A stretch of 54,728 bases of DNA, filler included, from Perkinsus olseni (taxonomy: Eukaryota): assembly GCA_013115125.1 (NCBI GenBank). It is 3 parts of 3 records of this genome, joined end to end, with 100 filler letters (N's around TTAATTAATTAA, not from the genome) between each part and the next. Parts side by side here need not be neighbours in the genome. Positions count along the whole stretch, not along the records: positions 18,292 to 36,466 come from JABANN010000621.1; 2 more parts are not named here. One strand, 5' to 3'. Shown here in pieces: positions 3,361-42,907 of this stretch (its first letter is position 1; every line of letters starts with the position of its first letter). The notes beneath the pieces are model-generated. The model was given only the letters and a program-made list of their open reading frames with translations, was not told the origin of the DNA and made no database searches. Made by a program: the position numbers and the translations under genes.

Positions 3361-3671
3361 GTTTCCATCTTGGTAGGGACGATGAAAGGGTTCGATCTGG
3401 GAGTTAGACTCGAATGCCCACAGAGGTAAGTCAAGCCGGCATGGTGTATCGAAGGAAGTCGAAAGAGCCGTGTGGAGAGGGGAGAAGGAGACAACGCTAC
3501 GTGACACACTCATTTCGCTCACAACTGAATACATCATAGTCGGAAAGGACAACACGCACGCGTGCACACAACCCCTCCGATGTTGAGTTGTTTCAAATCT
3601 TTCAAGGGTCGACCTAAGATACGCCGCTATAGGACGAGCTCAGCGGAAGAGACTCCCGCTCAATGGGAAGA

Positions 3672-10990: not shown

Positions 10991-11695
10991 ATGGGTTCAG
11001 GCTTCGGTAATACCACACCAATCGCAACTTTTATGATGGCATCCTCCTAGGTACCAGCTACGCTCACGACCCGAAGTGGATCGAAGACTGGATGTCCAGA
11101 AAACGCGTAGGGGTCGACCGAATGGGTAGGTCGCCGGCGGCCGCCCTCTGCTGCTCGCCCTCTGTTGGTGGTCCTCCTCAGATTGGTTCTTCCGAGCCTT
11201 CAATCGCCTCCGTCTCTATGAGCTATTCTTTAAATCTACTCCACGGTGAGATCTTACGGTGCTCCCGACCTCTTTTGTATCTTCCATGATCCAACCTCTT
11301 GTGTATCTTCCATGATCCAACCTCTTGTGTATCTTCCATGATCCAACCTCTTGTGTATCTTCCCTCCTTCTACCTCTCGAGTATCTTCCATGCTCCAACC
11401 TCTTATGTATCTTCCATGCTCCAACCTCTTATGTATCTTCCATGCTCCAACCTCTTGTGTATCTTCCATGCTCCAACCTCTCGAGTATCTTTCTCCTCCC
11501 CAGGTTCTACGCGTTCATGGTCATCGGCGGCCTTCTCGGCTCCTACTACTGGAGTCGCTTTTGGGAGCACTACTGGATCCGAGTCAACAAGGGGGTGGGC
11601 GGCGACAAACCGACTCCGCCGCAGCCTCGCTCATCCGTTCTCTTCAGCGCCTTTACAAGGACGTCCCATACGTCTACCCGCCGCAGGAAGAGTAA
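10991..11695 (+). CDS. QCR9: Cytochrome bc1 complex subunit 9, five exons
   Basis: Exons 10991-11006, 11051-11125, 11182-11245, 11504-11594 and 11648-11695 splice in frame. Product: MGSGFGTSYAHDPKW...LYELFFKSTPRFYAFMVIGGLLGSYYWSRFWEHYWIRVNKGRLYKDVPYVYPPQEE, with one TM helix and the W-x-x-VNKG-x-LYxD motif of QCR9. Confidence 0.88.
11266..11490. repeat. Tandem repeat, 26-bp unit GTATCTTCCATG(A/C)TCCAACCTCTT(G/A)T, about 8 copies, in QCR9 intron 3
   Basis: Read directly from the sequence. Confidence 0.95.
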
Positions 11696-18191: not shown

Positions 18192-18291
18192 NNNNNNNNN
18201 NNNNNNNNNNNNNNNNNNNNNNNNNNNNNNNNNNNTTAATTAATTAANNNNNNNNNNNNNNNNNNNNNNNNNNNNNNNNNNNNNNNNNNNN
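18192..18291. other. Artificial contig linker (N-TTAATTAATTAA-N)
   Basis: Six-frame stop cassette embedded in Ns. Confidence 0.97.
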
Positions 18292-18977
18292 TAAGTTAAC
18301 CCTCAACTTTTGGGGTATTGTGTTATTTATCAATGGTCACGCCTACTGCAAGTTCCTCTGACACTCTGGCCCGATTTTCATCGTCAAACCCTCATTTCTC
18401 GCCGGTGGGGCACCGATCAAAGTCACTCACACCGCAGTGAAACACCCTTTAGTAAGCCAACGTCTTTCACCGAACCAACTACCCAATTCTCTTAAGTAAA
18501 AAATATTTATACTTATACACTTTAACGTTGAATCCCAAGCCCAGAAGGGCTGTTGAAGGAGCCGTCGCTGTCCGTCCTCAGCGGTATCACCGGAGCACAC
18601 GTTACGGAAGAGCGATGTGCATGTGCAACGATACTCTAAACGTTGTGAATCAAGTGCTGCAAGGAAATTTTTCGAAGTTTCAGCAAATCTGAATTTTTCA
18701 GATAAAATTCTACGGCGAGAATTTCTACAGGCGGTTTCGGAAAGTTGCTCGCGCAATTTGCGCGGCGCAAACAAGGCACCGATTAATCTCCAGCATAGTG
18801 TAAAATTCGGACTCTGAATTCACCACCCGCTGAATTCCCCGACGATAAAGTCCATGATTTACAGCAGCTCGCAACTCGACCAAGGCAAGAAGGGAGAGAA
18901 TGGTACAGTGAGTCTGGTGCCGGTGTATGTACTTCTGCTGATAATAAAGGTACAGGGAGAAACAAAGCACAAGACCT

Positions 18978-21900
18978 CTACTCGGTCGCCACCCCGAAGC
19001 CTTCTTTCGCTGGCGTTGAATCATCAAAATTCTCTAGCTCAGTCGAAACCAGATATCTCTCATCAAACATCCGCCTGTGGTAATCACTGATTGCTCTCAC
19101 TACAGTTGGCAAGATACTCCTGATACACACATCAAGAGCAACACTAAGCAGTACTGAATATCGGGACATGAATGCACAGAGGTACTCTACAGAATCATCG
19201 AAGGTAGATAATAGATACACCGTGAGAACTTTGGCAACTGCCGAAGGCACTGTCGAGTGGAATAACCAAACTCTGACGGAAGGCCATAGAAGGTTGACAC
19301 AGACCTCCCGATGGAGAGGCGGGTAGAGAATACCGTGACTGTCGTACATGGTCCAGGCGACGTCCGCACGGGTGGCGATGGTTAGTATCCAAACCTGAGA
19401 GAGAATTTCCGAGAGAATCGTGGCGTCCAATAGCTCACCTTCATAGCGACTAATCCTGCTACCCAGCACGGGAAAACGAACAACTTGGTAGGGGCACTGG
19501 CAGTATTAACAACGTCCGAGGACGAGTTTGGCAGAACAAGGACACAATATAAGAGTAGACCAAGCAACAACGGCGCTATGACGAAGGTGAAGATAGTGGC
19601 TGCTAGTAAGGAGAAGAGGCTGAAGAGAAGCCTTCCTGTATTCCGCAGGAAGGATCGTATCAAATGCTGGTTATTGGCGAGCCGTGTAAGGAAGGATCGC
19701 GTCGCTGCCGGAATGCTAGACATCGCCGTCATAAGCCGCAAAATGACCTGATGAAAGTGGCCTTAAAAGGATCGGTGGTTGGTTGTTAGAGCCCACCTGG
19801 CCACCGAGCAGAGTGAGGACCACGCCCATAGGGGCAGCTTGCAGGTCATCAACGTAATGGAGAACTGACGCTGGGAGTAGAAGTCGACAAGCCCTTCTGC
19901 CCACGATCAACTGCGAGGGAGAAAGAGTAATAAGTGGAGCGAAGAAGGGTGCTGTCGAATTATAGCAGACCTTACCGGCAAGGTAGTGATCGCCACGAGA
20001 GTGCAAGTAGCCGCTAGTGATAGCAAAGACAGCAGCTTCAGCACCAGCGGTAACGTCCATTCCACCGTCGCCGGGGCACAGTCTAAGAATGGTGAGCTTA
20101 GACCAAGGCACCTGACGAGCGATATGGCGGGGAATGGGGAGCAGGGGGGACTCACTTGACGATCTTCCGGCCGAGGGATGCTAGTATAGGTGGCATCGGA
20201 GGCTTCCGGACGACCAGGGGGAAGAGAACATGGCCGCAAAGGAATTCTACTGATACAAAAAGGTAGTCCAAAGAACCTAACACGAGGAGGGCGGGAATCT
20301 TTGCGGTGCGCAGGAGTATCTTAGGCTTCCCACCAGACGTGGCGAAGGCGGATGGTGCTGCCTCTGGGTTTGCCTGAGGGCTTTCCGTTACGACCAAACG
20401 AGTTTGTAATGGTAAATATCGATGCTGGAAAGCCAAGGCCGGCAAGACACACAGAAAGACCTGAAGAATGGTGTGCATGCGTGCATACCAACTCTTGCAC
20501 GAATCATCGACTCACCAGGGCCAGTTTGTGTACTATGTAAATGAGAGAGTAGTAGAGAGCAGGGACCATGCCCTTGTTGCGGACAACCCCTCCCCTCTGT
20601 TCTCCACCTGCCTCTTCCTCGCTTCGACCGATGATATGACCGAAACATGCTACCATCGCCGGGGACTCTCTCATGGCTTCCTTGGCCTACCAACAGGCAT
20701 AGATCTACACCACCACTTCCCCTCCCCAACCCACCTGGGGCTTCAGGCACGACAACACGCCCTGCTCGGCAGCCTGAGTAATGGATATAACCAGATGCCC
20801 GACCAGCATGACCAATATTGCACCAACAACCACCGGCAGCTGACCCAGGGCTAGGGACATCAGGCTGCGCTCATTGGAGGGCTCATTGGAGGGCTCAAGC
20901 GGGTGGGTACCTGAAAATGACTGGTCTTGTCGCGCGCCACGAAATTCGACCACAGCACCTGCCGACTCCAGAGCGAGGAGAACGACACAGCCGACGGCCA
21001 AGGATGGAAGGAAACCTCCTGTGACTATAACAATACAGTACTTCAAGGCGGTCCCGACTATTGACAGAACCTGACCGCGCGCCACGAAATACAAATCAGT
21101 GGGCGGTGCGAGACGCCCTACCCTTCCAATGAAGCCTGCGCCGCCCCGAGTTGACCAGAGGTGGTACATCGCCGCCACTTGGGTGCAGAGGAGACCTCCG
21201 AAGGAGAGACAGATGAGGTCCCACGGGAACTAAGGAGGTTTCGGATCTGAGCCTGCACCTGGGACAGCCTGCTGCAACCTACATCGTCAGCTAGTGGCCT
21301 GGGATAGAGCCGTTGGGTGTCTGTGGCCGCATGATCCTGGATACGTTGGACGAACACCAAGTAAGGGTCCTCCTGAAGGTGTAGCTATGAGAAGCGCATC
21401 TCGGTCGGCAGGTGAGGAGAAGTACCGGTATGGTCGGTTGAAGGAGGGTCGGTGCTAGAGGGCACTGAGCTGCGTTCTCGATGTTGTCTATACCCGTAAC
21501 GAATGAGGTCGTACGGGAAAGTGTCGTTGCTAAAATGGCTGTTGTGATACTCGATGACGAGGAGGATGGAGACCTGCGAAGTGATGATGAAGAGATTGTA
21601 AGGCTCGAGAAGGAGTCTGGAGTACCCATTCGCTATGGGAGGGGCGTAGGCCAGGAAGGCGGGAAAGAAATGAACGTAGACAATACGGCCTGAACGAGAA
21701 TGGAACCCACGGTCATACGGGTGAGAGCAAGGAGTTATACCACCCGACCAAATGACCACGCAGCATTACCTATATAATATGGGACAACTATTAGAGCCAG
21801 CATCGCTATAGTGTTGGCGTATAACATCACAAACCACGTCGAAATCGATGGCCCCAAGCTGCCCTCCAGTCCGATGAGATCTGAACAATTCATTTGCCAC

Positions 21901-23753
21901 AAATCCACGCCCCCTCCCGGCTGCTTACTCTCGAGCCTGACTTCAATCTCCGCCTCTTCAACATTACCCGTCGTAGGCGCATCGCCACTACTGTCATCAT
22001 CATCACCACCATCATGTGCGCCACCATTGTCATCACCGTGTCCACCAGCAGCGGCATCGACAGCGGTATCCGACGTAGTTTCTGCAGTGGCCGTTGCTGC
22101 TGCAGTCGCCGCGGGCCTCTGCCGCCGTCTATGTATGACCCTGGGTCGATCATCACCAGGCTCCGTGGGCACCACCATGGGTACTGCTGCCACCCTCATG
22201 TGCAGCCACAGTTGAAGGAGGCCAAACCCGCACAAAGATATCAGTATCCCTCCACACAGTACTCCCAGCATTGGACGCCTGAAGATCATAGCTAGCCAGG
22301 GGAACTGACTGCCGCTGGACGAACTCGGGCCCAGCACGAAACCGTATCTGAGCACACAGTGACACAGATGCCAAGTCATCGTGCAAGGGGACTCCGCCCT
22401 TAGGGGAGGTGCGATATCTGTCACCGCGCCACGAGCGTCACTACATCTGAAGCCGATCAGGGAAGCCATCGATGACGCCAAAGATATCCGCCAATACCGT
22501 CATCGACATGAGTGGTAATAATACCTGAGGAACGAAGGAGCGCCATAAAATGATGAAACAGATGACTAGGGCAGCACTTTTGTCAATTTAATTTTCCCTT
22601 CGAGCAGAAAAATATACAACATTTTAACTCTTCAAAAAAGGGAGTTCCGGAAACTAATTCCTCCCGTGTTTGACGGCCACCGATATTACCAGCCATATCG
22701 TGAGGGCATAGAGTGGCCGAAAACATTTCTTGACAAAGGAAAATATCAACTTCCAAGTTTCGCTGAGGAAATATCTCACGGGAAGGTGACTTGGCGCATT
22801 GGGAGCATATCTGAACGTGAACAGCGTAATCGAAAGGTCGCCGGTTCGATTCCCTCTATTACACAACTCGAAAAGAAAATTTATGGCCGCACAGTTCGCA
22901 GCGCTGATCCTCTAAAATGAAAGTCCCATCATCGTCATCAGTACGACCCGTACCTGAGGCAGTCGACGAGAACTGGGCAACTCGCCTCGTGAATATCGCA
23001 ATGTATGGTATTACCATATGGACACTAGCTATAAATACTTTATGTGGCCACGCTGGCAAAGTAGATACTGATTTGGTACTATTACACATTTTACAATTAG
23101 TATATTTTATGACTTTATCTATTATTAAATGAAAATGATGATCAGAAAATTTTTAGGATCTCTTCTTGAGAACTTTCATATCGGTTGATACGGTGCGTCC
23201 CACACATGTCTACTCTTATCAACATACAGATGTGAAGAAAAAGATTGCCCTCAAGCTGGCCGTGGTAGTCATCCACTCCATCAAAGATATCCAATTACCG
23301 CGCGCCAAGAAATCCCTTAGTATTACGTCGCATAGCCAGCCACCTCCTCAGACATTGTTCATGTACGTAGGCTATGCTGCCTGAGCATCGGCATGGATGG
23401 TAGAGAGGGCCCTCCTCCACTCCTTGGCCACAGATACGGCACATTGCAGCATCCGAAGATTCGCTACGACCTCGCGAACGGGCTTCTTCCACCGTTTCAT
23501 TCTTCTCCTGGGTCGGATTCTGCGCCGAACTCGAGTCAACCAAAGATACTCCGTCCTGTGTCGGCTGGTCCGAGGCAGGTCGAAGAGAGGATTCGTCGAG
23601 GTCGAAAGATACGCTGCTGTCTCTAACACTGGCTATACTATCGGTCTCCACAGCGTTGGTAACGACACTCGCCGTATCTTCGACCGTCGGAATATCAGAG
23701 GCATCCGATACCGACCTCGCATGATTGGCCATTGGGGATCCATCCATCGTCAT
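18978..23753 (-). CDS. MARCH6: MARCH6/Doa10/TEB4-like RING-CH E3 ubiquitin ligase, multi-exon
   Basis: RINGv CRIC..PLYHPCRCSGSIAYVHEQCLRRW..CELCGHKFSF followed by YAPNAPSHLP. Many hydrophobic exons. Doa10-type C-terminal element MFDERYLVSTELENF before the stop at 18978. Internal exons are not all resolved. Confidence 0.9.
22811..22862 (+). pseudogene. tRNA 3'-half relic occupying a 52-nt MARCH6 intron, antisense to the gene
   Basis: TAATCGAAAGGTCGCCGGTTCGATTCC with an exact B-box at 22843-22853. Confidence 0.55.
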
Positions 23754-24053
23754 AAATATGCTACAATTCCGTGCCACAGCGAGAAGATCATCACCTTGAT
23801 GAACAGTCGCACTGAACGCAATGCAGTTTGACTAACATGACAGCTCTTTCACGTGCTGGCATGAGATGTTGCATCTCGGACGTCCTCCTTAAAGCCTTTC
23901 CTGAGCGATACAAACTTGCAAAATGGATCGATTTACACTAATCACATTCGACGCGCCGGGGCGTTGGCTAGTGGCCCACTAGTAGTGAGCAGAAGGTAGT
24001 AGAAATCTACCAACAGCTGGGGATCTTAGAGGTTAACCTGTGAGTATCCCGCT

Positions 24054-25182
24054 TTACATAACAGTATTTTTTATCCATTTTATTTCCTCCTCTCCGGGTT
24101 TCCCGATCATCCTCGTTCCATCGTAACTGAATGTCTTATTCTCTACTGGATCGAAATACCCGTTGCCAACATCATAGCAACCTGAATGGAACGGCATGTA
24201 CTCCATCGACAAAGGGAAGCGAGAGGTTGAGTTAGAATTTCGGGATTATGACCTTTGGGTATCTTAGGTGGACCCTTGGGATCGTTGGTTAACAAAGATG
24301 CGCCAGCAGGTCGGATGCCGTGTTTAACCTCATCATAAAATCTCCGATCGCCGTTATTCAGATACCCCCAATCCTTATCCTCGAAGTCAAGGCCATCCCC
24401 GAAGACGTATCTAAGGTCGATGCATACAAGATACAAAGTAGCTTAGGAGCTGGGCCATCGGAAAGAGGATCACAAAGAGTTTGTGACAAACCACCTCCGC
24501 TAATTGCGCGAATGGCGCCTTCATGCACATCCCCCCCGCGTTCGATCTCACCACCGAGACAGACGTTCAACGACGTCCGAAGGAAGTTTGGCACTCGAGA
24601 GACCAAAATAATACAGCTACTCCCCCGGTTCTCGACATCGACCAGTGGTCGACGACCACCCACGGACTAAGATGCTAATTTCTATTTTAAAGTCGTTTGC
24701 GGTCGTCAGAGTCCAGCACGGGGGGACGACATACTGTGGGAATGACGTCTTCGAAGCAGCACCTTTTCGCCGCGCCACGAAACTGCGGCCCGAGCCTTCA
24801 CTTGCTACCCTCTAGCAAGCTGGCATTCTCATTCCTAATTTCGGCTACGAATTACACGGGCAACACGAGATTGCGTCATCATCCAGGGAAGAACGGAAAA
24901 TCAAGAGAAGACACGGGGATTCCGTGGAGCGGTTCAGATGGATTTTTTCGTTACCTGCCGTCAATGGCAATGCCCCTCTTCCACTTGCCAATGAAGGTAC
25001 CGCCATCCGGGAACGTGAGAGTCCCCTCGCCATCAAATTCATCATTGATGAAATCACCGGAGTATCTTAGGTTGACCCTGGCACGATACGAAGTTGCCAT
25101 TGTACTACTACACCGTGCCGTTGGGGAAGGTATATTCCCCCTTCCCCTCGATCCATCCGTTCTTGACGGAACTCTCGGACAT
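24054..25182 (-). CDS. MORN5: MORN repeat-containing protein 5, multi-exon (3' end uncertain)
   Basis: Spliced product: NGWIEGKGEYTFPNGTVYSGDFINDEFDGEGTLTFPDGG..YVFGDGLDFEDKDWGYLNNGDRRFYDEVKHGIRPAG..PPKIPKGCYDVGNGYFDP. This matches the MORN5 motifs DRRFY, GLKPAG and IPKGYYDCGDGFYNP. Confidence 0.88.
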
Positions 25183-25702
25183 GAGAATCAAATGATGATG
25201 CAACGATGGTTGCCACAATTTGTCAAATTGCATTTTATGCGACAAAATAGCGCACGCCAGAAAATAGACTGCGCCAGTGGAAATAATCGGGGCTAATTGG
25301 ATGAGAAACTTCTTGAGGCTGAGTCTGCTGGCTGTCTCGGGTGGAAATGACTGCGAATTTAAAGTTAGAGTAGCGACATTAGGGCAAGCTAGGGTGACAT
25401 CAGTACATTATTAATTGCCTTGGATGATTGATGATGCTATTACTGTCTTGACTGCCTGCATCGATGCCGTCATGCTGATCTTCAATATTTTGCGGAGTCT
25501 CTGGGCCGTACTCGCCTACCCCATTACGATCGTCGTATCGTTCTTAATGGTAGTAGCAGAGGGACACTGACTGGCAGCGTATCTTCCGGAATGCAGGTTC
25601 TTGCATTGGTAGCATTTAATTGGTATGTTACGTGGACTCTGGTGTTACGCCATGTAATCAGGAGTATCTTGTTTTCTTTCGGCTGCGCAAAGATTCTTCT
25701 AG

Positions 25703-25817
25703 GTGGGTCCGTTCAAAGATTTCTTGAAGGCCAGGGCTAAGCGATTGGCAGCGGAAGAAGCTGCAGTAGCGGAAGAGAAGAAAAAGAAGGAAGAGGAGGC
25801 GGCTAAAAATCGGCCGG
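25703..25817 (+). CDS. Charged coiled-coil exon of an unresolved hypothetical gene
   Basis: AG acceptor, then VGPFKDFLKARAKRLAAEEAAVAEEKKKKEEEAAKNRP, then a GT donor. Hydrophobic exons lie upstream. Confidence 0.4.
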
Positions 25818-27170
25818 TGCGAAGGCGGGTAATATGGCGTAGTAGTCAGAGTAGTGGTTTGATGACCGGGAGGTATTGGGTTCGATTCTAATCAGGTCCG
25901 TATAGGCCTCTTCGGACCGTACATCCCAAAACGTCATCACTCCAGCTCTACCGCTCGTAGAAGGCCGGTGTTTTTGCCGCCTCCGATGAGCATCGGTTAT
26001 TGAGGTGGGCGTATCTTGAGGTCTGTGAGAGCCCAGGTCGACTTGTAAAATACCGACTGGTGATGCGTGGTGGGATGCCACCCAATTTCTGAAAGAAGAC
26101 ATCAATTCTGGACCGATAACACTGCCATAATAATTTTTACAGTCTATCCACATCAATTCGCAATGTCGTATACTATTGGTCATTTGAGCTGTAAGAAATA
26201 CCTGCATGTGCACTGGCTGACCTATTTTGTATCTCCCGCGAATCAACCTTGGATACGGCAGTGTTATTTATCAGCTTGTTGACTGTTGTGTGGGGCATTC
26301 CTATTGGGAACTAAGAATCTCTGATGTCAAGTTTGAAGGGTTCATGTTTTCCTTTTCCATGCCACCCGCAAGCAGCAGCAGCAGGAACTCGTGGGTTGAC
26401 CTCGACTCGCCGGAAATACAGCGGCTAATCGAATGGTAATTTACGCTCGAGTATCTTCCACCCGATTTGAGATGTGAAGTAGGTATAAGTTGAAGCCCGA
26501 TGAACGGCGACATTTGGCCAAACCTTGTGGAAGGGCAGCACCGGAGGCAGCAGGTGTTTCAAGGAGGACTCGTGAAGGGCTGTAGCATCGAGTTTGCTAT
26601 GATGCTGAGTATTTCAGAAAGGCCTAGCAAATTGCCGAGGATCGTGGCCCGGGCGTCGGGTGAAGTGAACCGGCAACAGCAGCGAGAGGAGGGGGATGGT
26701 AGTCGACCTAAGCAGGCAAGGATGGAGGACAAACGGCGCCGTGAGGCTATGAGGAAGTAGTGACGGTACTGACAGGGGAGATGTGGTAGAGATGTGGTAT
26801 CTTCGTCGTTCGTGGAATGCTGGGTCGACCTGCCATATATACAATATGTTAAACGGTCAGTATTCCCTGGCGAATGGAAAAGTGTAGAGTCTTGGAAATC
26901 TTCGGTGCTCGCTTCTCCCTCGCGAACTATGTACAGTCATTCTTGCCGTTCCATGGGAGAGTCTCCGTTGGTGTCGAAGAGATTCTCCAGGTTGTTGAAC
27001 AGCATCGAAGCAGCTTGCCGAGAGTACAGCCGAGCGATGGTCCACTGCCAGTACAGAGGTCAGGCCTTGCGGGATGAAACGCGGAAGAGAGACGTGCTGC
27101 CGGTAATAGAAGGGTATTCTTTTTGGGCTATTCTGCATCTAGCGAGCTCCAGGGTAAGATACCTTCTCAG

Positions 27171-27538: not shown

Positions 27539-28341
27539 ATCTTGAGGTTGAGCGTGCAGTATGCAGTGAGGTTGGGTCGAAGTTGGGCTCATCGGGGCCC
27601 GTTCATGCTACGAAATGTTAATAATGGGTTTCTAAGCGCTGATGTTGGCTTAGTTCTTGGAGATGGGTATCTAAGGTCGATCTGTGCATGATACGGATGA
27701 GCTCAAGGAGTTCAGTATGCTCCCCGGCATCTTGGGAACGACTTGGGCTGATCTTATCATCTTCAGTTTGGCATATTTCATTTCCTTCATCTCCATCGAG
27801 AGGAGGAAATTTATCTTCAGAAAAGACAAGTCGCACGGACAGCACCGATTCCGGCAGAGTTGGTCGTGCTCGACTTTCAACTTTTATAATAATCTTTGGT
27901 GGCAGTAGTACCGAAGGAGTTTTTCGTAGTCCGAACCCCTTCGGCAGAAAGTAGAAGATATTCTGTTGGAGATACCAGTGACTTGCCGCTCCTGTTTGAA
28001 AGCAGTCAAAGAGACCCTATCAGCGGCCTTTCGAACATCACCAACAAGAGCGAACTCGACAGAAGAAGAAGTACAGCAAGCAGGGATCGAACCAGGGACC
28101 AACCGAAACAGAAGTCACTTAAGAGACACGAATAAGACAGTGTTGTCTAACTCTTCTGATAATAGTAAAGGGAAGAGAAGCGGCCCGTCTGAAGCTATGG
28201 GGTGCGCGAGGTCGACTCAATCCAAACCGCCAGGTGAGTATCTTTAGGTTGAGGTGGTGGGATACGAATAAGGTTCGGGACTTGTGAGGGTATCTTAGGT
28301 TGATGCGTGCATAGGATAGTTGAGTGCCTTCGTTTTGTACA

Positions 28342-31080
28342 GATGTGGCGCGCATTGCTTCAGCAATAGTGCAAGCAGGAGGTGTTGATCCGTCCTCAGG
28401 AGGGGATGGTAGTAGGCAACGAACGCCCAACGCTGCTGCTGCTGCCGCTTCCTCGACGGAACAGCATCATATACCGAGGGATACCAATACGTAAGAAGGG
28501 TCGATAGGCTAGTAGGGGAGAGGTGTGGGATGCTGAAGTGGCCACCCGGGTTCGAATCCCTTGTAGTTGAATTTCTGATATTTCTCTATTTAGTGTATGA
28601 TATAACTACAACGATTGAGATCGAGAAATCTTAGGTGATGTTGTGTATCGTAGACGATAAGGCGCACTGCATATCATAGACACACCATTGCCTGTTCATT
28701 GTTGCTCGGCATGGTATCTTTCGTATGCCAGGTTGGACGTGACGGTGGATCGAACTTATGATCCATTCGAACCTGACCATATCGACAAGCAAACTATCAA
28801 CGGTTCGGCCGACTTCGTCGTTCGAATATTCAACATGCAGTGTCGATCCTTACCCGAGAGGATGTCGACTAAACTCAGGATATGCTGGGCAGGTAATAGC
28901 GACGGTGGGGAATCTTCGCTGTGCGCATCGGAAGGGTATCCTCCGCGCTTGATTGTTATTATTACCATTCTCGATAGGTACGGTGTACGAGACGGGATGG
29001 CGATGGTCAGCGGACCCTCAGTGGACGTCCGAGCCGATACGATTCATGTGGCATTACAAACCGAGCCCGAATAACAACCGAGGGATAGCAGGAAAGTTCG
29101 TCAAAGTGGATGTAATACATCTTAGTGGGTCTCGGGATCGTTGGATATTCTTCACAGTGCGGTAGTATGATATCTTTCTGGGTGTATGTTAGGTCATCCA
29201 GAAGCTCCCAGATGGGAGTGAATGTTGTCGTGGTACGGTGAAAGTATCTATGCTGACCATCGCGACTGGCCCGATGCACCACGATATTGGGTTGGAGCCC
29301 CCCCTGTCGGAGGAGGATGATGATGGCCATGATCATCTACATCATCATGAGCACACCACTGATGTGCAGCATGCGGAGCGGCCGAAGGGAATGACACCTG
29401 CGGCTAAGCTAGCGGAATCTGGCGTCGGTAGGTCGTAGTAGTGGGGGGGGGGGTAAGAATCGCTTCAGTTTCGTGGCGCGCGGTCAGCGGTTTAGTCTGT
29501 GGGCCTTCGAACGATCATGTGCGGGTTTGGGTAGACGAATGTGTCTACTGTCACGGTCGCCCTCGGTTCTCTGCTGTTAGTTCACACATGGGCCGAACGT
29601 GCGCGGTGTGAGTATCGAGTATCTTAGGTTCAAGCAGGCTCGTGATGAGTATCAAGATGGCTCAGCAAGGGAAGATTTATTTGCAGACTCAGGAAGCTTC
29701 TATTGACTTTGGTAAGACATTTGATTATTTTCTCGCGCGCCCTGAAATCATCATGTTATTGCTGCTTAGGGAGCGGTCACGAAGGTTATCCAGAAGTAGC
29801 TACTCCCCCATGCGATGACGATTCTGCGATGGGTAATCGAAAGGTCCCCGGTTCTAATCCTGGCAACAACATTATCCCCCAGGCCCCTCCTATATTGCTT
29901 CTAGTGAGCTTGTACCCGAGCAACCCGGAGAGGCGCCTTCCCTGGTGTTTGACGGGACTAGGGATCTCGTGGAAGGCAGTCAGCATACTGGGCGCCACTA
30001 CCTACTAGCGTATAACATAACAGGCTTGACATCATAGTAATGATACTGGGAGAGAATTCGTGCTTCGCTCCGCTGGGAATCTTATGTTTTGCATCATTCA
30101 TGGTAAATGCTTGTGGTATCTGAACCATGATGAAGTGAAGAGTCTTGCCGGCGCTGGCGTCGTCCTAAGAGGTTCATGTGTGGATTTCTTCAATTTTCTA
30201 CGTATCTTATCGAATTCATCGCGGTGCGGTGTGAATCTTCTCGTCTTATTTCGGTGGTATCTTGTCAGTCCTCAAACACCAGCGCCGCCTCCACCAACCC
30301 TTCCGGACTCTCCGGCGGGGCCAATTCCACAGTCCTTGGATCAGCTCAGTGATCATGTGTTCCCGGGGAATCTTTTCTCGACTTGGACACCATGCGTGCA
30401 GGAACCTGAATGGGATAATACTGATGGCCAGGTGAGGTTGAAAGATCCCTCTAGGGGTTGCGACCTAGGACGTATCTTTCAGTTACCGTTGGTGTGCTTG
30501 AAAACAAGTATGACATATTTGCGAACGGAATCGCTTTTATTGCGACTTTATTCATCGATCAATTTGTCACCGGATAAATTGGTGAAGTTTCGAGGCGAGA
30601 CATGGGTAAGATTCTGACCTATTTTGTATCTTGCGAGGATAACCTGGGGATACGGTTCAGATTCCTCTAGCGAAGATATATGAAGTGAATGAGTGGGGCC
30701 GTAACGCTATGAGTTCGGCTAATTCGGACTCGGATCAGTCAGCGTCGAACCAAGGCAACTCACCGCCTTTCATCGAACGTAAGTGTATCTTGAGGTTGAG
30801 CAAGCAAGATACAAAATAGGTTAGTCTCATGACACTTTGGCTTCAGGGACAATGACCCAGAAACTTTGGAATCACGGTCGTCATGTCGGCTTGTTGACGA
30901 TGCATTTCCGCATCACCGCCATGCCGCGATATAGACAGCTAGCGGCTGGGGTAATGCCACTGAATATTATTCTGTCACGCGCCCGAAAATTAACTTCCTC
31001 GTTCTCGGCTAGGTTCATATTGGTAACGGTTTTATCGCGAGAACGTCCGCGATTGTCCGCGACGAGCGACCGGGAAGGGC
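28342..31080 (+). CDS. Multi-exon protein with C2-like domains (boundaries approximate)
   Basis: Exons encode LRICWAGTVYETGWRWSADPQWTSEPIRF, GTVKVSMLTIATGPMHHDIGL and EPEWD..LLLRL..GETWIPL, which show C2-like beta-strand patterns. Confidence 0.5.
28499..28570 (+). pseudogene. Intronic tRNA-like relic
   Basis: A-box-like TAGGCTAGTAGG and an exact B-box GGTTCGAATCC (28549-28559). Confidence 0.55.
29830..29871 (+). pseudogene. tRNA 3'-half relic (Val-like)
   Basis: CGAAAGGTCCCCGGTTCTAATCCTGGCAACAACA resembles the 3' half of eukaryotic tRNA-Val. Confidence 0.55.
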
Positions 31081-31125: not shown

Positions 31126-34100
31126 ATGGGTGAGTTATTCACGATGACGATCTTTTTCACGCAGGCGGCATTGAGGCGGATGCCGGATAAGCTGCGGAGA
31201 GTGTTCTATTTGAGCGAACGATTATTGAGTCCAAATGAGACGAAACCATTCGGTGAAAGTCAGAAGACGGAGAAGCTGGTATTGGAACTTGCTGATGCTT
31301 TCAGCGTCTCGGGTACTACAGGATTCGGGGAAAATACGGTACGAAGTTTGTCCGAATTTATGCGGCGATACCAATTAGCGGCAGAAGTAGAACTTTTTTC
31401 TCTGGAAATTCGAGAAAATGTTCCATTGCTTTGGGTGAATTACCGGACATGATGAGCTCGGTTGCGACGAGTCGAATTATTTTTTCTCAGCTTCCCGTAC
31501 CCCATCTTTTAGTCACTAATAGTTCCATCTGTTTAGGATCATTTTTTTCGGAGTAGACATTTCGTTTTGTGGCGACAGTCCAGTATCATTGCCCTCTTCA
31601 GATAAGCAGTCGATGAAGTCATTCATCTACAGTAGTGATAGGAATCTTCTGAAGGCCCAAGGTATGATGATGGACTTGATACATCAATCTGTGGCGATGC
31701 TCTCGTACACTACTGGTAATAATCATTAACTACTACCCGTTTGGCATCGTCCGAGGGTATGATGGCTTGCGAGGATTCTCCGCTTTGGTAGTAGTCACTG
31801 TGGGAACGGCATCATCTGAATTGCTCCATTGTGTGATTCTGTTTAGTAGAAGGTGAATCCTGATCATACAGTAGATTAGAAGCAGCGGGCTGAATATTTT
31901 AGATTTGTCTTCTGGCGGAGCGGAGTGATTCATGTTATGGAATTTTTCAGGTGGCATACAATGGGGTCTGCAGCAAGCCTATTGTCGATTACTACAAGCC
32001 TTGATAGTTCGAGGGGAGTTGGAGTAATAAAATATCTTTGGCACGAACTTGTTCCCAACGAGCTTCGCTCCGCTAAAATTACCTGCATTTTCAGAGCCCT
32101 TTCGCAATTGCCCCCTCCTCCTAGTGGGTATACCTCTCACGTTGAGGCACGCCGGGACTTGTTGAAGTATCGGGAAAATAAGGCTCAGAAAAGTACTGCG
32201 AGTGCGTGCATACCAACTTTTCCGCGCATCATCGTTGTGTGTCAGTCTCATTGGGCCCGGGGGACCCCGGGTATCTTGACGAGACCCAGGCTGCGGCATT
32301 GGAATGGTTCGAGACCAGAATGAACTGTTGTCGTCGATGGCAAGATACAATGTAAAGATGGGGAGGAGCAAATCATGAATATAAATTTCGCCTCCGTGTG
32401 AAATTTGTGAAATTTTCCGCAAGTGATTTCTCTGTTGGTGTGTGGAAGTGCTTCGCTGTTGTTGAAAGCAGTTACCCACGTTGAGATAGGATCGACATAA
32501 GATGTGAATGCTCGGGTTCGAACTCTGGACCTATTGCATGCCAAGTCACGTCCTCCTACGACTTAGTCATTCTCGGATGCCCTCTCAGATACACGCTAGC
32601 AGTTTTCGCCTTGCGGACGATAGACTCTGGTCGGAGAGGTTACAACCTTTATGAGGTTAGCCCAGATATGATACCGATGTTGTATGCGAGGTAAGGAGAT
32701 ATGCCCAGCGGATCGGGATGCGCTCCGTTCGATCTTCCCGAATTCATTCTACGTCATGTGGATAACTTTCCGCACGGTATGAGCTCTCACCGAAAGTATC
32801 TTCTTATGTGGTATATAATCGCTAGTAGCATAACCTATCTCATGGGATGGACTCACCATGTGCGTATCTTTCCACTCGTTATGAACTCACCATGTGCGTA
32901 TCTTTCCACTTTTTATGAACTCACCATGTGCGTATCTTCTCACTTGTTATGGACTCACCATGTGCGTATCTTTTCACTTGTTATGGACTCACCATGTGCG
33001 TATCTTTTCCTCGTTATGGACTCACCATGTGCGTATCTTTTCACTCGTTATGGACTCATTATGTGCGTATTTCTCCTCGTATAGAAGACCAACTATATGC
33101 ATACCTCTACAGTTGGTGTACACTGATGACGTATCTTGCTATTACCAGGTTATATTTCCTAGTACCAGAGCTTGGTAGAACAGTAGCTGATTGTTTATTA
33201 AGCAAAGAGGAGGAAGATATGGATATCGCTGAGTGGAGAGGCAGCTCGTAAGGTTGACCTGCGTTGTGCAAGGTGCGAGATACGCCGAGTATCTTAGGTA
33301 TAGCCTGATGCGAGCATCTTTACACAGCAATCGAGTGTGGGTCCCTCAAGCAAAAGATATTCAATTACTATTCGACCTTACTGACTTCCATAATGGATTG
33401 AAGTAATGAAGAATCTTTGTGTGCATGCGTGTAGATCGGCGTGGCGAATGGTATCTTGTTATGCTTTTTCAGTGAATACTTTGGATTAACGGAGCATGGA
33501 TGGGTGAGAGTGAAACGCAGACTGCTGCAGGTGAGGAAGGTCGAAGCCTGCTCTATAGGCTTCGAAAGATACGTTTTCATTGTCTTAGATTCAAGTTCAC
33601 GCATTGATCGGCGAGAAAAGTTTGTGGCGCGCGAGAATGAGGAAGAGGAAGACAACGTTTTTGCTCTTCGTGAAGTGTTGGTGCAAGTATGAACCTGTTT
33701 TGAATCTAGCATGCTTAACGCAGAGATACGTTTCTTGCAGATACGTTTCTGAAGTGGTTGTCGACCAGAACCAGCTGGCAGATTTGTGGAAGTATTTACC
33801 TGGATATCGGACGCTTCTCAAGGGGGTGAGTATCTCCAGGTTGATCGCGAAAGATACCAAATAGGTCAACTTCGAACCCACAGGTATTCCTTTGCATGAA
33901 GTACCATAAGAGAGTTGACCACTACCCGGATGCCTTAGTCGACTGTGCGGCCAGTGTCCTGAGGAACACACAGACGCTCAGCTGCATCGTGAAAGTGAAC
34001 AACTATGCCCGCTCGTGTCCTCTCGCCCTATCTTACTTTCAGATAATGTTCCACAGTACCAATGTCTATAACCAAAAAGCTGTCGCATGCGCTATGAAGA

Positions 34101-35381
34101 TGGTAAGGCTGAATACGGAGGGGTCTTGTCACTCATGGCTGTTCACTTCCGCAGATTCATTTCCTATTTTTGTCTCTGCTGGTCCGACATGCTTCACTAC
34201 CGGGCGATTTCGACATGAACTTTTTACTGCATGGCATCGATATGCTATTAGAGTACTCAGTCTTGACATCTTTTGTATCTTGCCTGCTTCAACCTGAGAT
34301 ATTTTTCAGGTGTGATATAGCTAGAAACATGCATAACGTTCTGTGGTTGATCTATCAGCATTGGGGTCTCTTTGCTGGCCCCGTGTCGACCATGAGTGGG
34401 CGAAGTTTGGTCACTGACCATTTACTAGGAAAGCACTTCGACAGGTTGCTGGTGAGCTTTGCCGAGGTTAATTTCGTGGCGCGTGACGTGGTGATTCCTC
34501 CTCAGTTGCATTGGTCCTGGTTTGTTCGCCAGCGATTCATTCTTCTGCTGCTCTTCCGCGTCGGCCCACTTGTTGGTAAGTCGAGCATACCTCATCCCGT
34601 CTGCCTTCAACCCTTATTTACAAGATCCTCCCCCGCTGGACTCGGCCCCCTCGGCTGAGCAGAATCCTTCCGCCTCGACTACTCGAGCGAATGATCAAGT
34701 CGGCTACTACAAATGGCGGTGTGTTGTGACTGAATTAGTGGCAAGACAATTAGCGAGGTAAGGCATGTTCCATTTCATGCATTTAGCGCCCGCCCTGATA
34801 ATCGATTTGTTTTTCGGTCAGATACGGTCTCACTGATGTTATCAAGGATCTGTCCTTGCGTGGGGGCAACGCTTCCTCGAACGACGCGAAGTCGTCGTCG
34901 GCTGCGGCGTCGGCGGGTGGCATGTTCCGAATGCCGGTCCCTGCGCGGACAGGACAGGTGCCCAAACGAGAGTATCACTTCAAAGTACCACCGGATGTAA
35001 CACCGTTACAAGCTAAGGAGGTGAGTATCTTGAGGTTGATCATGCAAGATACAGAATAAGTCGGTATAAAGACGAATTTGCTATGCTGATGAAATTTTCC
35101 GGATTCGAGAACTTGGGCGACGTTGTTGTGCGTCACGCGCCATGAAATTACGGTCAGGTGCCATTGGTTGAGACTGAGTGGACGAAACAGATGCAACATC
35201 ATGACCTGTGGAGGATGTTGCCGTCCGTATCAGTAAGAAGAGTATCTTTAGGTCGGAATAGGTGATGACCGTATCGTCTCAGGAGCGTATCCGATGTCTA
35301 CCACAATTTGAGCTCACCGACTTCGTCGAGCTCGACCGTGGAGTTGATGATTTCTCTAACCCTGAGCTGGATGAACAGTAA
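31126..35381 (+). CDS. DUF1765-like protein, multi-exon (5' boundary approximate)
   Basis: Exons with STNVYNQKAV, DFDMNFLLHGIDMLL, NVLWLIYQHWGLF and LLLHWSWFVRQRFILLLLFRV resemble the DUF1765 HWSxxVR region. Probable stop at 35379-35381. Confidence 0.55.
32848..33075. repeat. Tandem repeat, 34-bp unit, 7 copies, probably intronic
   Basis: ACTCA(C/T) recurs at 32851, 32885, 32919, 32953, 32987, 33020 and 33054. Confidence 0.95.
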
Positions 35382-36466: not shown

Positions 36467-36566
36467 NNNNNNNNNNNNNNNNNNNNNNNNNNNNNNNNNN
36501 NNNNNNNNNNTTAATTAATTAANNNNNNNNNNNNNNNNNNNNNNNNNNNNNNNNNNNNNNNNNNNN
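36467..36566. other. Artificial contig linker (N-TTAATTAATTAA-N)
   Basis: Same cassette as at 18192. Confidence 0.97.
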
Positions 36567-37660: not shown

Positions 37661-37748
37661 TTTTCAATGTATTTTTTTGGGGAATCCCGGGGAATTTCGC
37701 CCTGGGAGGGAAAGCCTTGTAGAATTCCCCATTTTCGCCACCCTGTCT

Positions 37749-38280
37749 GAGAACTCGTTAGAGATGAGGCCGGGCGTGGTAGATTTTTTGATCTTATCGA
37801 GCCCAATCGACGGCAGGCGAGCAGCTGAGGTTATCATCAATACCGTGTCGAAGCAGCAGCGGGCTACACATGATGGTTACACATATTACACAGGAATACG
37901 TAACGGTAAAATATGGAAGGCTCGTGCTCTCCATGGAAGACCCAGGGTCTCAAACCCTCGTGGGGAGAGAACGCAGAAGTCCGTGGCAACTCAGAGCTTG
38001 GAAGACACGAGTCGTGTGCGCAGGCTGAACCGACTCGGTTCTCTATCCGGCGCAAGAGCCAGCAATTGTCCATGACAGCCTGTCCCTCTAGCGGCTAGAG
38101 TCTAGCCGGCACGCGTGGACATAGCTCAACCAGACTCAAGTGAGCTAAGATCAGCCCGTCGGCTAGCGATTGGCTCCGAAAGTGAAATCGCTAAATCCGC
38201 GAGCGCTAGTTAGACTGAATCTTGACTTGAGATTCTTGAGAAAAGAGACATCGCAGGTGTGATTCATATTAGCAGTCTCT
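37749..38280 (+). repeat. Duplicated segment (copies at 40251-40606 and, in part, 42684-42890)
   Basis: Shared runs such as GATGAGGCCGGGCGTGGTAGA, CTAGCCGGCACGCGTGGACATAGCTCA and ATCATCAATAC(C/T)GTGTCGAAGCAGCAGCG. Confidence 0.9.
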
Positions 38281-38416: not shown

Positions 38417-40716
38417 AGAGCAACTTCCTCTATGGCACGGACGACAATCCGCGCCTGCACTTAAGGCTACAGATATCCCCGGACGGGCTAATGGCAGTGC
38501 ACGTCTTGTGTAATGCTAGGCTATCCGCGAGCGGACGCCTCCCCTTCCATGGCAGGAGCGCGATCAAACCGCGGTTCACTACTCTCTAAGATCGTCGAGA
38601 AAGAGCTCTTTCAAAACTTCCACTCATATGACCGCACTCATCTCACTCATCGTACCGCGGCCCATACTGGGGTTACTCCGGCACTTGGCTTCTGATCTCG
38701 GTCTCCTCCCCCAGTGACGATCAGACGTCAGCTTCGCCTCCTGGATGGCGTATCACTACTCTCTATCTCTCTCTACTCTCTATGGTTCGATGGCGATTAG
38801 CTGGTCAGGCTTGCGTCTTGCACGTAAAAGATACTGTCAGCTCGCTCAACCACTCAGCGGGGAGTTGTCCCCATGTTTCCCATTCAGCTTCTTTTCCAGC
38901 ATTGGAAATGTGTTCTTCTCTTCTCTTGACCAACATAAGTAGTAGCCTGCGATCGCACTGAGTTCACTCACAGTGTTTTCACGCCTGCCTCTTGACTCTG
39001 TCGAGTTTATGAGTCAACTTGGAAAGATGCGACTCCATCCAAATTCTCTCTGGGTAGACTCTCCAGTGGTTGATGTGGGTTCCACTGCAGCCTTCTCCCA
39101 GAGTGAAGGGGCGGGCCGGGGAAATTTGACACTCTTCACGAGTCTGAGTACGCAAACCGCGAAATATCTGCAGACACGGCTGGTCACCTGCATGATGTAG
39201 CCATCCCGGATTCCAGAGGTGCTACTGATGGCCCACCCGAAGCATTACCAAGAGGGTGGTATGCCATCATTCGTCGCAAGAGTACGCAGCATGGGACACT
39301 CCACAGTAGTGTATTCTATAGTTTCGATCCTACAGTACTAACGGCATCGAATGACGATCCAAATAAAGAAAGGCTCGACGACGGCACTGTTTTACACAGT
39401 GCCGTTCACAAGGCACAAGTTACTCAAAGTCAAACTTGGCTAGCACGAGCACTTAATAATTGGTCTACCGCCTTTGCTGTTATGAGAAGTTTCAAATTTT
39501 CTTTGAAGTAGCTCATCCTAGAGTTTAGTTTCATCCTGTGAAGCGAACCCACAGTTTTGATGATCAGCTCTATCCTATCTGATTGACTTGATCGAACACC
39601 GGACTCGAGGGGGGTTAATCGATCATGGGAAACTACAGCGTAAGCTAGCCTAGCGTAAGTTTCATCCTAGAACCCACGCACGGGAGTGCGAGGCGCATAA
39701 CAAGGTCAGACGGCTATCTGAGTCTAGTGATACGCAGTAGCTGTGACTGGAGCGATGGTAGTCTAACAACCGAGTACTACTCAGTGAGTAGTACTGGAGT
39801 CGGTGGCAGCTGGTGCCTAGCTTGCAGTCGTCACTATAGTACACACGCGAACGAGTGAAAGATACTCGCACGACACAATAGGCGCACGCGCGCCCTCGTG
39901 GGCCACGAGTCATCTCCATTGGAGATGACTTGCGGACTCAAGTGGCACGATCTAGCGTATTGCCACCCCTCCCTGCCGAAGGACAAGATGTGGGCAAAGC
40001 AGCGTTCAAGCTGGAAGCCATGCTAACCCTCTAGCCTCTCTGCTACCACAGCGCCTAACCTGCGCCTCTCCGAGCCACTCAGATGCTCAGTGCTCCATCG
40101 GCCCTTCCACCCAACTCAAGAAGTAGAAGCAGGTCAGGTTACGAGCCACACTTTTGTACCAGGACATAAGTTACAGGCCCGTGCTCGCCTGGTTTCAGTG
40201 TCTCTCCCAACGCAAGCATTCATGGGATTCCCTACAACTCGAGGTTTCTTGAGAACTCGCTAAAGATGAGGCCGGGCGTGGTAGACTCTGCCCTTCTCGA
40301 AGCCAATTGACGGCAGGCGAGCAGTTGAGGCTATCAGTTGCAACTCGCAGCTTGGAGGACACCAGTCATTTGTGCAGGCTGAACCGGCTCGGATCTCAGT
40401 GCGGCGCAAGAGCCAGCTCTGTCTGGGACAGTCTGTCCCTCTAGCCGGCACGCGTGGACATAGCTCATCTCAGCTCAAGTGAGCTAAGATCGGGCCGTCG
40501 GCTAGAAGTTGGCTCCGAAAGTGAAGTCGCTAAATCTGCGAGCGCCGATGAGACTGAATCTTGAGAAAAGAAACACCGCAGGTGTGATTCGTAGTAGCGA
40601 TCTCTTACCGTGTAGATTCCACACTGTGGAGTCCTCCAGCGGGCTGCCTAACCTCGACCCTCCCTCCTCGTCTCAGTGATCCGTCCTTAGTAGTTGGCTG
40701 CACAGCATCTCAGAGC

Positions 40717-42349: not shown

Positions 42350-42907
42350 ATGGAGAACAACACCTCAGCTGAGTCCAGGCGCGGAGCTCTGGTAAAGGCG
42401 ACAAATCGGGTCATGGGAGAGGAGCCAATCGACGATGTCACTACATTCCGGGGTCGAATAGCGAGAGATGGCCGAGCTAGGGCAGTTGAAGAGGCCCTCA
42501 GAGCCAGCAGTCCCCAGGTGCAACCGAAGGCGTCTTGGCTGGGAGGCTTCAAAACTCGAACTTCAACAGCTCACCGACTTTGGCCTCCGGTCAGGTGAGT
42601 ATGCGAGCTGTGCTATCGGGTATCGGCTTGGAGAAGTACTTCCCCCATTTCCGGGAATCCGGTGAGGTGCCGTCGGAGATGTTTGAGAATTCGCTAGAAG
42701 CTGAGCGGGGCGAGTGAGGTCAGTGTGAAGGAGTGGTCCGTTGCCCGCTTGACAGGCTTTGATCTTATCGAGGCCAATCAGCGGCAGACGAGCAGAGAAG
42801 TGGAGGATATCATCAATACTGTGTCGAAGCAGCAGCGAGTTCACATTCCGCACGAACACAGGGCGAAAATATGGAAGGCCCTGAGGTGCTCTCATCTAGC
42901 TGTCTAG
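42350..42907 (+). CDS. Small SAM-domain-like protein, multi-exon (splicing not fully resolved)
   Basis: VLSGIGLEKYFPHFRE and IPHEHRAKIWKAL match SAM helices 1-2 and helix 5. Confidence 0.55.

Follow-up and report, generated by a model that had tools for sequence, protein, structure and literature searches.

The window analysed here, a 54,728-nucleotide (nt) stretch of Perkinsus olseni DNA (assembly GCA_013115125.1), contains a mitochondrial carrier (SLC25) gene and a DUF1765-family gene on the plus strand and a MORN5-like gene on the minus strand, and a degenerate repeat of ~40 nt recurs in the introns of all three. The DNA is eukaryotic, ~50% G+C and Perkinsus olseni-like, and exon translations were 100% identical to the NCBI Perkinsus olseni proteins P0002 (MORN repeat-containing protein 5) and P0009 (mitochondrial carrier). 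The window comprises three contigs separated by 100-nt N linkers with a central TTAATTAATTAA at 18192-18291 and 36467-36566, and the flanking parts are not necessarily neighbours in the genome. The intron set consisted of 43 supported introns (window 4050-36293), each backed by RNA, an annotation protein, homology or a gene model. RNA evidence was taken from contigs assembled from public runs; 15 of 66 joints, those listed, were counted as RNA-confirmed introns. The introns seen in RNA contigs were all GT..AG and 44-128 nt long (44-67 nt in 14 of the 15 joints listed), and GT..AG also bounded the other junctions that were refitted or read. The minimum length among the 43 supported introns was 44 nt.

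The repeat has the consensus GTATCTTAGGTTGA-N7-AAGATAC-AAAATAGGTC, and repeat-search families D4, D8, D9 and D11, together with many inverted pairs, were all built on this unit. The 11-mer GTATCTTAGGT, allowing up to two mismatches, matched 42 times against 10.5 expected, a roughly fourfold enrichment that was reached in 0 of 100 shuffles. An nhmmer profile built from 14 copies gave 16 window matches at E ≤ 6e-5; 14 of these are the profile's own seeds, which match by construction, and the two non-seed matches lie at 11264-11297 and 33691-33734 (E-values of 7.7e-6 and 6e-5). Over 40 nt, full copies have ~30 ordered positions in common, and in the 55-kb window they score E-values between 1e-9 and 1e-11, these being seeds; pairwise identity among copies averages ~0.60, with 0.84 for the best pair. 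Conservation falls in blocks (GTATC, AGGTTGA, AAGATAC and AAATAGGTC) around a variable 7-nt spacer; the two inverted arms, GTATCTT and AAGATAC, are separated by 13-14 nt and are both located within one end of the intron. These data identify an interspersed Perkinsus olseni repeat that is genuine, old and much diverged. No profile match in the third contig (36.5-54.7 kb) was better than E=2.5. A scan of the whole window with Rfam 15 at gathering score returned 0 matches. In a metagenome collection, a 19-base pattern hit 56 loci, among which the profile matched only L026 and L033 (one sequence, E=0.001), both without the 3′ tail, and no relative was found there. The heptamer GTATCTT occurred 66 times against 5.85 expected, with only 2 of the 66 in the third contig, and was also seen 2-16 nt upstream of acceptors in introns without a full copy.

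A full copy was present in 12 of the 43 supported introns, five in the forward and seven in the reverse orientation; three further introns held degenerate copies and 28 held none. The full copies were distributed over three unrelated genes, in three of eight SLC25 introns, two of three MORN5 introns and seven introns of the DUF1765-family gene, and none lay in coding sequence. The repeat is not a general intron consensus, as 14 of the 15 RNA-confirmed introns are without it.

The MORN5-like gene (24054-25182, minus strand) has four exons, at ~25182-25112, 25065-24955, 24410-24253 and 24181-24054; exon 1 runs from the ATG at 25182 to ..ACGGT at 25112, and the stop codon of exon 4 lies near 24054. 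Intron 1 (25111 to 25066, 46 nt; GTAGTAG...TCAACCTAAG/ATAC, the slash marking the junction) holds a reverse copy at 25058-25098 in plus-strand coordinates. Its acceptor AG is within the repeat, the last 4 nt of which (ATAC, 25065-25062) are exonic. Intron 2 (24954 to 24411, 544 nt; ...TCGACCTTAG/ATAC) carries a reverse copy at its 3′ end (24404-24451, plus-strand coordinates) and also uses an acceptor within the repeat, and intron 3 (24252 to 24182) contains no copy. The initial annotation had proposed that both first introns end inside the element, as ..CCTAAG/ATAC (25066) and ..CCTTAG/ATAC (24411), and that the exonic ATAC encodes the MORN tyrosine. Indeed, public Perkinsus olseni models use both junctions (P0004, ..FPNGTV/YSGDF.., for intron 1; P0002, ..IAIDGR/YVFGDG.., for intron 2), and the exonic TAC is the MORN tyrosine. 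Consistent with both junctions, the stretch from GKGEY to GDGLDFE was equal in length to that of the Fibrocapsa ortholog P0005 and gap-free in a letter-by-letter reading. The upstream CAG near 25081, named earlier as an alternative junction, was examined as a rival acceptor for intron 1 (CAG 25080-25078, in frame) and is disfavoured because the resulting intron of 34 nt would be shorter than the 44-nt minimum of the 43 supported introns and four residues would be added inside a MORN repeat. Support for the MORN5 junctions comes from gene models and homology and not from reads: no spliced contig was found over this gene, runs X9 and X16 having zero depth there and the X7 contig (23324-24984) being unspliced. 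The public annotations of the locus are mutually inconsistent, in that P0004 (1285 aa) joins the MORN5-like gene and a downstream RING-type E3 ligase gene into one model (18893-25182, minus strand) and P0003 begins within MORN5 intron 2.

The SLC25 gene has its ATG at 3930, and refitting of P0009 yielded eight introns, with junction-spanning identity of 100% at six and one mismatch at two. Introns 1 (4050-4102, 53 nt) and 2 (4241-4304, 64 nt) hold reverse copies, the donor GT of intron 1 lying inside the repeat's far end (GTAACCT). Intron 7 (6487-6534, 48 nt) holds a forward copy from +5 and is marked by a 16-residue gap against P0009 and P0012 and by an exact refit; the repeat's ATAG at nt 39 is not its acceptor. 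Degenerate forward copies were found in intron 4 (4581-5356) and intron 5 (5499-5960), the acceptor of the latter being the TTAG of a partial copy. The same refit placed introns 3 (4402-4450), 6 (6125-6395) and 8 (6622-6671). A GTGC..GTGC direct repeat around the copy at 6491 was judged a coincidence, since no other copy has one.

The DUF1765-family gene, with its ATG at 28197, is covered by RNA pieces at 27765-28230/28234 and 29193-29426. A first gene-finder setting over-split this gene into 56 exons, and enumeration of exon chains produced 258,489 solutions and was not used. A stronger intron penalty, with site matrices trained on the nine RNA-confirmed introns of the neighbouring RING gene, recovered all nine of those introns; the resulting model of the DUF1765-family gene is wrong beyond ~34445, where its frame differs from that of the tblastn match. 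The model places three exons between the RNA pieces; together they measure 386 nt, the length of the contig over that interval once 3 ambiguous letters are subtracted from its 389 nt, and intron 1 is therefore set at 28234-28399. This 166-nt intron, at the donor of which the RNA contigs end (28230-28234), has a forward copy from +5 (28238) and a partial second copy at 28288-28311. Three other introns of the gene hold forward copies: 30779-30846 (68 nt, copy from +7; mainly from the model, with weak homology and a 4-residue gap against P0008), 33826-33883 (58 nt, copy from +5, with the acceptor 15 nt beyond the repeat; homology to P0008) and 35021-35157 (137 nt, copy from +5; gene model only). 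Reverse copies fill the introns at 33687-33740 (54 nt; an 18-residue gap in the tblastn match to P0008) and 34253-34309 (57 nt; a 19-residue gap against P0008 and P0006). A further reverse copy, at 30609-30657, ends 17 nt before the acceptor at 30670, in an intron that comes mainly from the model and starts at 30508 or 30606.

Within this gene, a 15-nt tandem duplication at 33723-33752 (AGATACGTTTCT, TGC, AGATACGTTTCT) creates two in-frame acceptors, ..GAG/ATAC and ..GCAG/ATAC, 15 nt apart. The acceptor of 33687-33740 was probably once ..GAG/ATAC, and the duplication probably moved it 6 nt past the repeat. The small exons 30671-30778 and 33741-33825 each lie between an upstream reverse copy and a downstream forward copy, which makes their flanks mutually complementary in the pre-mRNA (30609-30828 and 33691-33873).

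The size of the copy-bearing introns bears directly on how the repeat came to lie in them. Their lengths were 46, 48, 53, 54, 57, 58, 64, 68, 137, 163, 166 and 544 nt, and did not differ significantly from those of copy-free introns (median 52.5 nt; Mann-Whitney p=0.20). Eight of the 12 are 46-68 nt long, the normal size here, with the repeat making up ~60-90% of each and the remaining 6-28 nt dissimilar between copies. Insertion of 40 nt into a typical intron would yield ~85-110 nt. The repeat was therefore not simply added to introns of normal size; either it made the intron together with flanking bases, or the introns shrank later. In the other four (137-544 nt), the repeat lies only at the edge with its GTATC end outward, a placement that by rough arithmetic would occur about once in 10,000 under uniform placement.

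The copies are also positioned with respect to the splice signals. Forward copies start 4, 4, 4, 4 and 6 nt after the donor GT, and GTATC occupies donor positions +5 to +9. The donor overlaps described earlier, GTGA-GTATCT at 28234, 33826 and 35021 and GTGC-GTATCC at 6487, were all present, and the first, second and fourth of these donors are supported by the ends of RNA contigs (28230-28234), homology to P0008 and P0009, respectively. Among reverse copies, those of MORN5 introns 1 and 2 end 4 nt past the acceptor, and the others end 6, 7, 9, 13 and 17 nt before it. The acceptor lies inside the element in two of seven cases (MORN5 only) and the donor inside it in one of seven (4050-4102). The proposal that the element supplies splice sites was supported in part: it held for the AG of MORN5 introns 1 and 2, probably for the ancestral acceptor of 33687-33740, for the donor GT of 4050-4102 and for the forward donors from +5 onward, but the acceptor in use lies beyond the copy in five of the seven reverse introns. 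Similarly, both orientations do occur in spliced introns of three genes, as expected if a copy could be spliced out either way round, but the donor and acceptor are mostly outside it. The repeat is not a self-contained splice unit, and splicing does not remove a copy as one piece. In 21 of the 43 supported introns, the exon that follows the acceptor begins with GT, and many AGGT boundaries are ambiguous, with 3-5 letters that fit on either side.

Four full copies lie outside the supported introns. A minus-strand copy at 3579-3627, identified by profile match, precedes the SLC25 start codon (3930) by ~300 nt, and a plus-strand copy at 27662-27709 is ~57 nt upstream of the first RNA-covered base (27765) of the DUF1765-family gene. 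The copy at 26214-26258 (minus strand) lies at the 3′ end of a plus-strand transcript (25402-26269) and lacks the AG (CCTTGG). It is retained in the mature RNA contigs, contrary to the proposal that an inserted copy could be spliced out in either orientation. The fourth (11264-11297) heads a tandem array on the minus strand at 11260-11491, with 8.9 units of 26 nt that correspond to the repeat's inner part, AGGTTGG-N7-AAGATAC-ACAAG. Tandem units were also seen in SLC25 intron 4, where 50-nt units at 4981-5129 and 5227-5335 contain ATATCCTAAGGTTGA, and in a 458-nt intron of the DUF1765-family gene, where 34-nt units at 32847-33070 contain GTATCTT.

The dispersal of the repeat was examined by comparison among copies. 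Identity was 0.612 within genes and 0.599 between genes (permutation p=0.29), and local gene conversion was rejected for want of a within-gene excess of similarity. The occurrence of both orientations in one transcript, together with this absence of a within-gene excess, points to dispersal at the DNA level. A reading in which copies such as those at 33830 and 34302 are the two inverted ends of a single long transposon was rejected because homology shows separate short introns. U12-type introns, with the 5′ site consensus RTATCCTT, were likewise rejected: the donor is 4 nt upstream of GTATC, the RNA ends at 28230-28234 and not at 28237, and the reading frame requires the donors at 6487 and 33826. 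A conserved RNA hairpin was unsupported, since the predicted folds differed in eight introns with Z-scores of -2.30 to +0.77, only one of the eight being below -2.

Some features of the surrounding transcripts and contigs were observed in passing. An RNA contig at 25402 bears a loose end, CTTGGCTCA, that looks like a remnant of the 3′ end of a spliced leader, and contigs of the DUF1765-family gene begin at 27765 with 6-9 extra letters; the loose end and the extra letters suggest trans-splicing at 25402 and 27765. At 28911 and 34488, RNA contigs of runs X9 and X16 diverge from the window sequence and continue for up to 255 letters without a match; odd joints (27396/34469 and 34488/28279) occur in DNA run X8. 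These departures and joints may stem from another allele, from a paralog or from a difference in the local assembly. In the third contig, two to three tandem paralogous segments, 83-94% identical, were found at 37748-38280, 40250-40605 and 42684-42807 (families D10, D12-D14 and D20); the repeat is absent from them.

The history we consider most likely is that the repeat and a few flanking bases became an intron on insertion, because most copy-bearing introns are no longer than ordinary introns. The repeat resides at intron edges, mostly with its GTATC end nearer the adjoining exon. A forward copy begins 4 nt after the donor GT, and its GTATC provides bases +5 to +9 of the 5′ splice site. A reverse copy has its ...CCTAAG/ATAC end at the acceptor or a short distance before it, and the two in MORN5 supply the AG itself. 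On this history the repeat would be a degenerate family of Introner-like elements that act on DNA, which would account for the two orientations. The +5 register and the GT following 21 of 43 acceptors fit the scheme described for dinoflagellates, where the donor is provided by a 4-nt GHNN target duplication and the element comes next. The family, the positions of its copies and the junctions are shown by the data, whereas insertion and intron creation are inferred, and we hold an Introner-like origin of the repeat with a confidence slightly short of even.

Several observations weigh against this origin. Target-site duplications, which the initial annotation had proposed as a check, were looked for by comparing the first four intron bases with the first four downstream exon bases, and a 4/4 match was found in 0 of 43 introns; the second copy of a GHNN-type duplication is not recognisable here. 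None of the introns examined carries copies of opposite orientation at its two ends. The donor GT of forward introns is outside the repeat, and the AG of AAATAG, which had been noted ~39 nt downstream of the donor, is present as an internal ATAG but is not the acceptor in any of the four resolved cases (6487, 28234, 30779 and 33826), the acceptor in use lying 6 to ~120 nt further on. Offsets of reverse copies from the acceptor in use vary from -4 to +17 nt. Mean column identity among copies was 62%, indicating that they are old, and in run X8, which represents DNA of a divergent strain (95-99% identical) and covers the copies at 26214, 30609, 30782, 34262 and 35020, all five were present. Blockwise conservation could reflect constraint rather than decay, and the introns could have shrunk after insertion through a strong bias towards short introns. 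In published surveys, Supplementary Table 4 of PMC9860276 gives ie=0 for P. olseni, P. marinus and P. chesapeaki, and supplement file 7 of PMC12130899 gives 0 Introner families in all nine Perkinsus rows. The method described in PMC9860276 uses intron-against-intron BLAST at E≤1e-5, a step that would probably miss 40-nt copies as diverged as these.

These points are shared in part by a different account, somewhat unlikely in our judgement, in which a minisatellite-related repeat spread among existing introns, was tolerated only there, and the introns were later trimmed by deletion to the preferred 45-70 nt, the overlap with splice sites being secondary. Such a resident repeat would fit the related tandem arrays in or near long introns (11260-11491, 4981-5335 in SLC25 intron 4 and 32847-33070 in the 458-nt intron), the copies outside cis-introns (26214-26258, 27662-27709 and 3579-3627), the age of the copies and their zero target-site duplications, and the tight distribution of intron lengths suggests strong length selection. 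However, the 6-28 nt of non-repeat sequence left in the eight short introns is below the 44-nt working minimum, so that near-total loss of the original intron would be needed each time, and the fixed +5 start of forward copies would be unexpected under random insertion. That +5 register and the blockwise conservation with a variable spacer would also fit a selected cis-acting module, retained for aiding or regulating splicing, for example as a strong extended donor, as a splice-site hairpin or through pairing of inverted copies around small exons. In U6, GAUAC precedes the ACAGAGA box, and GTATC at +5 to +9 would extend the pairing to this GAUAC. The exons 30671-30778 and 33741-33825 do lie between inverted copies, whose arms are 76-78% complementary over 40-51 nt (pairs I4 and I8), and the GTATCTT excess (66 versus 5.85) and its recurrence 2-16 nt before acceptors point in the same direction. 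Yet an RNA-level mechanism would not readily account for function in both orientations, folds were inconsistent (one of eight introns below Z -2), and the arms, read by eye and without a count, showed one candidate compensatory change against several broken pairs. The motif is moreover gene-specific, with no copy in the nine RNA-confirmed introns of the RING gene or in the third contig, and is therefore not a general requirement of the spliceosome; we regard a splicing module as improbable.

Chance resemblance to the splice-site consensus, with no family behind it, does describe the partial matches. The 5′-half matches at 5950-5960 and 33289-33297 (and at 29619-29627 in one of two models) are working acceptors of the ordinary form TATCTTAG/GT, and those at 24257, 10258 and 10519 are coding sequence (..LRY.. 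or KIPKG); partial matches are not evidence for a repeat family. For the full copies, chance is contradicted by the E-values, the two non-seed copies and the 11-mer enrichment, and as an explanation of the whole it is very improbable.

Comparison with known systems likewise gives likenesses and differences. Miniature inverted-repeat transposable elements (MITEs) are small non-coding elements present in many copies and in either orientation, frequently within introns or untranslated regions; they are usually at least 80 nt long, with terminal inverted repeats and target-site duplications. The Perkinsus repeat is like MITEs in its short length, multiple copies and two orientations; unlike them, terminal inverted repeats and target-site duplications were not seen. 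As in Introners, a family of similar introns occurs in unrelated genes (12 introns in the SLC25, MORN5 and DUF1765 genes), whereas the high copy identity of Introners was not found (best pair 0.84), nor were target-site duplications (0/43) or inverted copies at both ends of an intron. According to the part of PMC9860276 covered, target-site duplications and/or terminal inverted repeats are found in only part of the known Introner families (49/130 and 72/177). The Introners of Micromonas pusilla and Aureococcus anophagefferens, as described in the covered parts of PMC9860276 and PMC7789003, also form families of similar introns in unrelated genes, and both orientations are possible in Aureococcus; the copies of those elements are almost identical to one another, are of defined length and carry both terminal inverted repeats and target-site duplications, whereas the Perkinsus repeat is ~40 nt, degenerate and without both features.

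The dinoflagellates provide the closest comparison by descent, Perkinsus being their sister lineage. In the covered part of bioRxiv 10.1101/2020.10.14.339549, Introner-like elements of Symbiodinium and Polarella glacialis are described as DNA-level intron creators, some classes of which act in either orientation, and the tendency of the exon after the acceptor to begin with GH is attributed to Introner target duplications; in the window the corresponding exon begins with GT in about half of the supported introns. The same source describes terminal inverted repeats ending at the acceptor, 3-8-nt target-site duplications and many young elements (tip divergence 0.9-3.8%). In contrast, no duplication or paired termini were found for the Perkinsus repeat, its copies are ~60-84% alike, and the acceptor is usually outside it. 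In Amoebophrya, a related myzozoan parasite, the passages of PMC7789003 covered describe short inverted repeats and 3-5-nt direct repeats across exon/intron boundaries, which may be compared with the ambiguous AGGT boundaries of many introns in the window; there, however, each element pairs the two ends of a single intron and splice sites are non-canonical, whereas in the window the RNA-confirmed introns and the other junctions refitted or read are GT..AG and the arms lie inside one intron end. Perkinsus itself is named in PMC7789003 only for comparison, in the passages covered (12 of 21). Full-text literature searches on Perkinsus introns and repeats yielded no description of this repeat, supplement files 13 and 14 of PMC12130899 lying outside the search.

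No source of mass intron gain is better supported than Introners. Dinoflagellates show them at their most extreme, and Perkinsus, a parasite of oysters and clams, is the intron-dense sister lineage of dinoflagellates. The repeat described here is real, old and intron-associated, and an Introner-like origin for it is plausible rather than proven. At a practical level, splice junctions are occupied by the repeat or by its partial look-alikes, and public gene models of the region disagree with one another. It is possible, though doubtful, that Perkinsus carries a very abundant, ultra-short (~40 nt) Introner family overlooked by large surveys, in which the GTATC end is a two-way splice cassette and AG/GT the worn footprint of the dinoflagellate 4-nt-target mechanism. 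Were this so, forward insertion after a GTNN target would complete a strong donor and reverse insertion would bring an acceptor (CCTAAG/), and the density of 16 copies per 55 kb, if genome-wide, would correspond to thousands to tens of thousands of copies. Introner-driven intron gain would then date from the Perkinsus/dinoflagellate split or earlier. A repeat of this kind would show that standard similarity screens miss old or very short Introner families, and would offer a means of dating Introner activity relative to that split.

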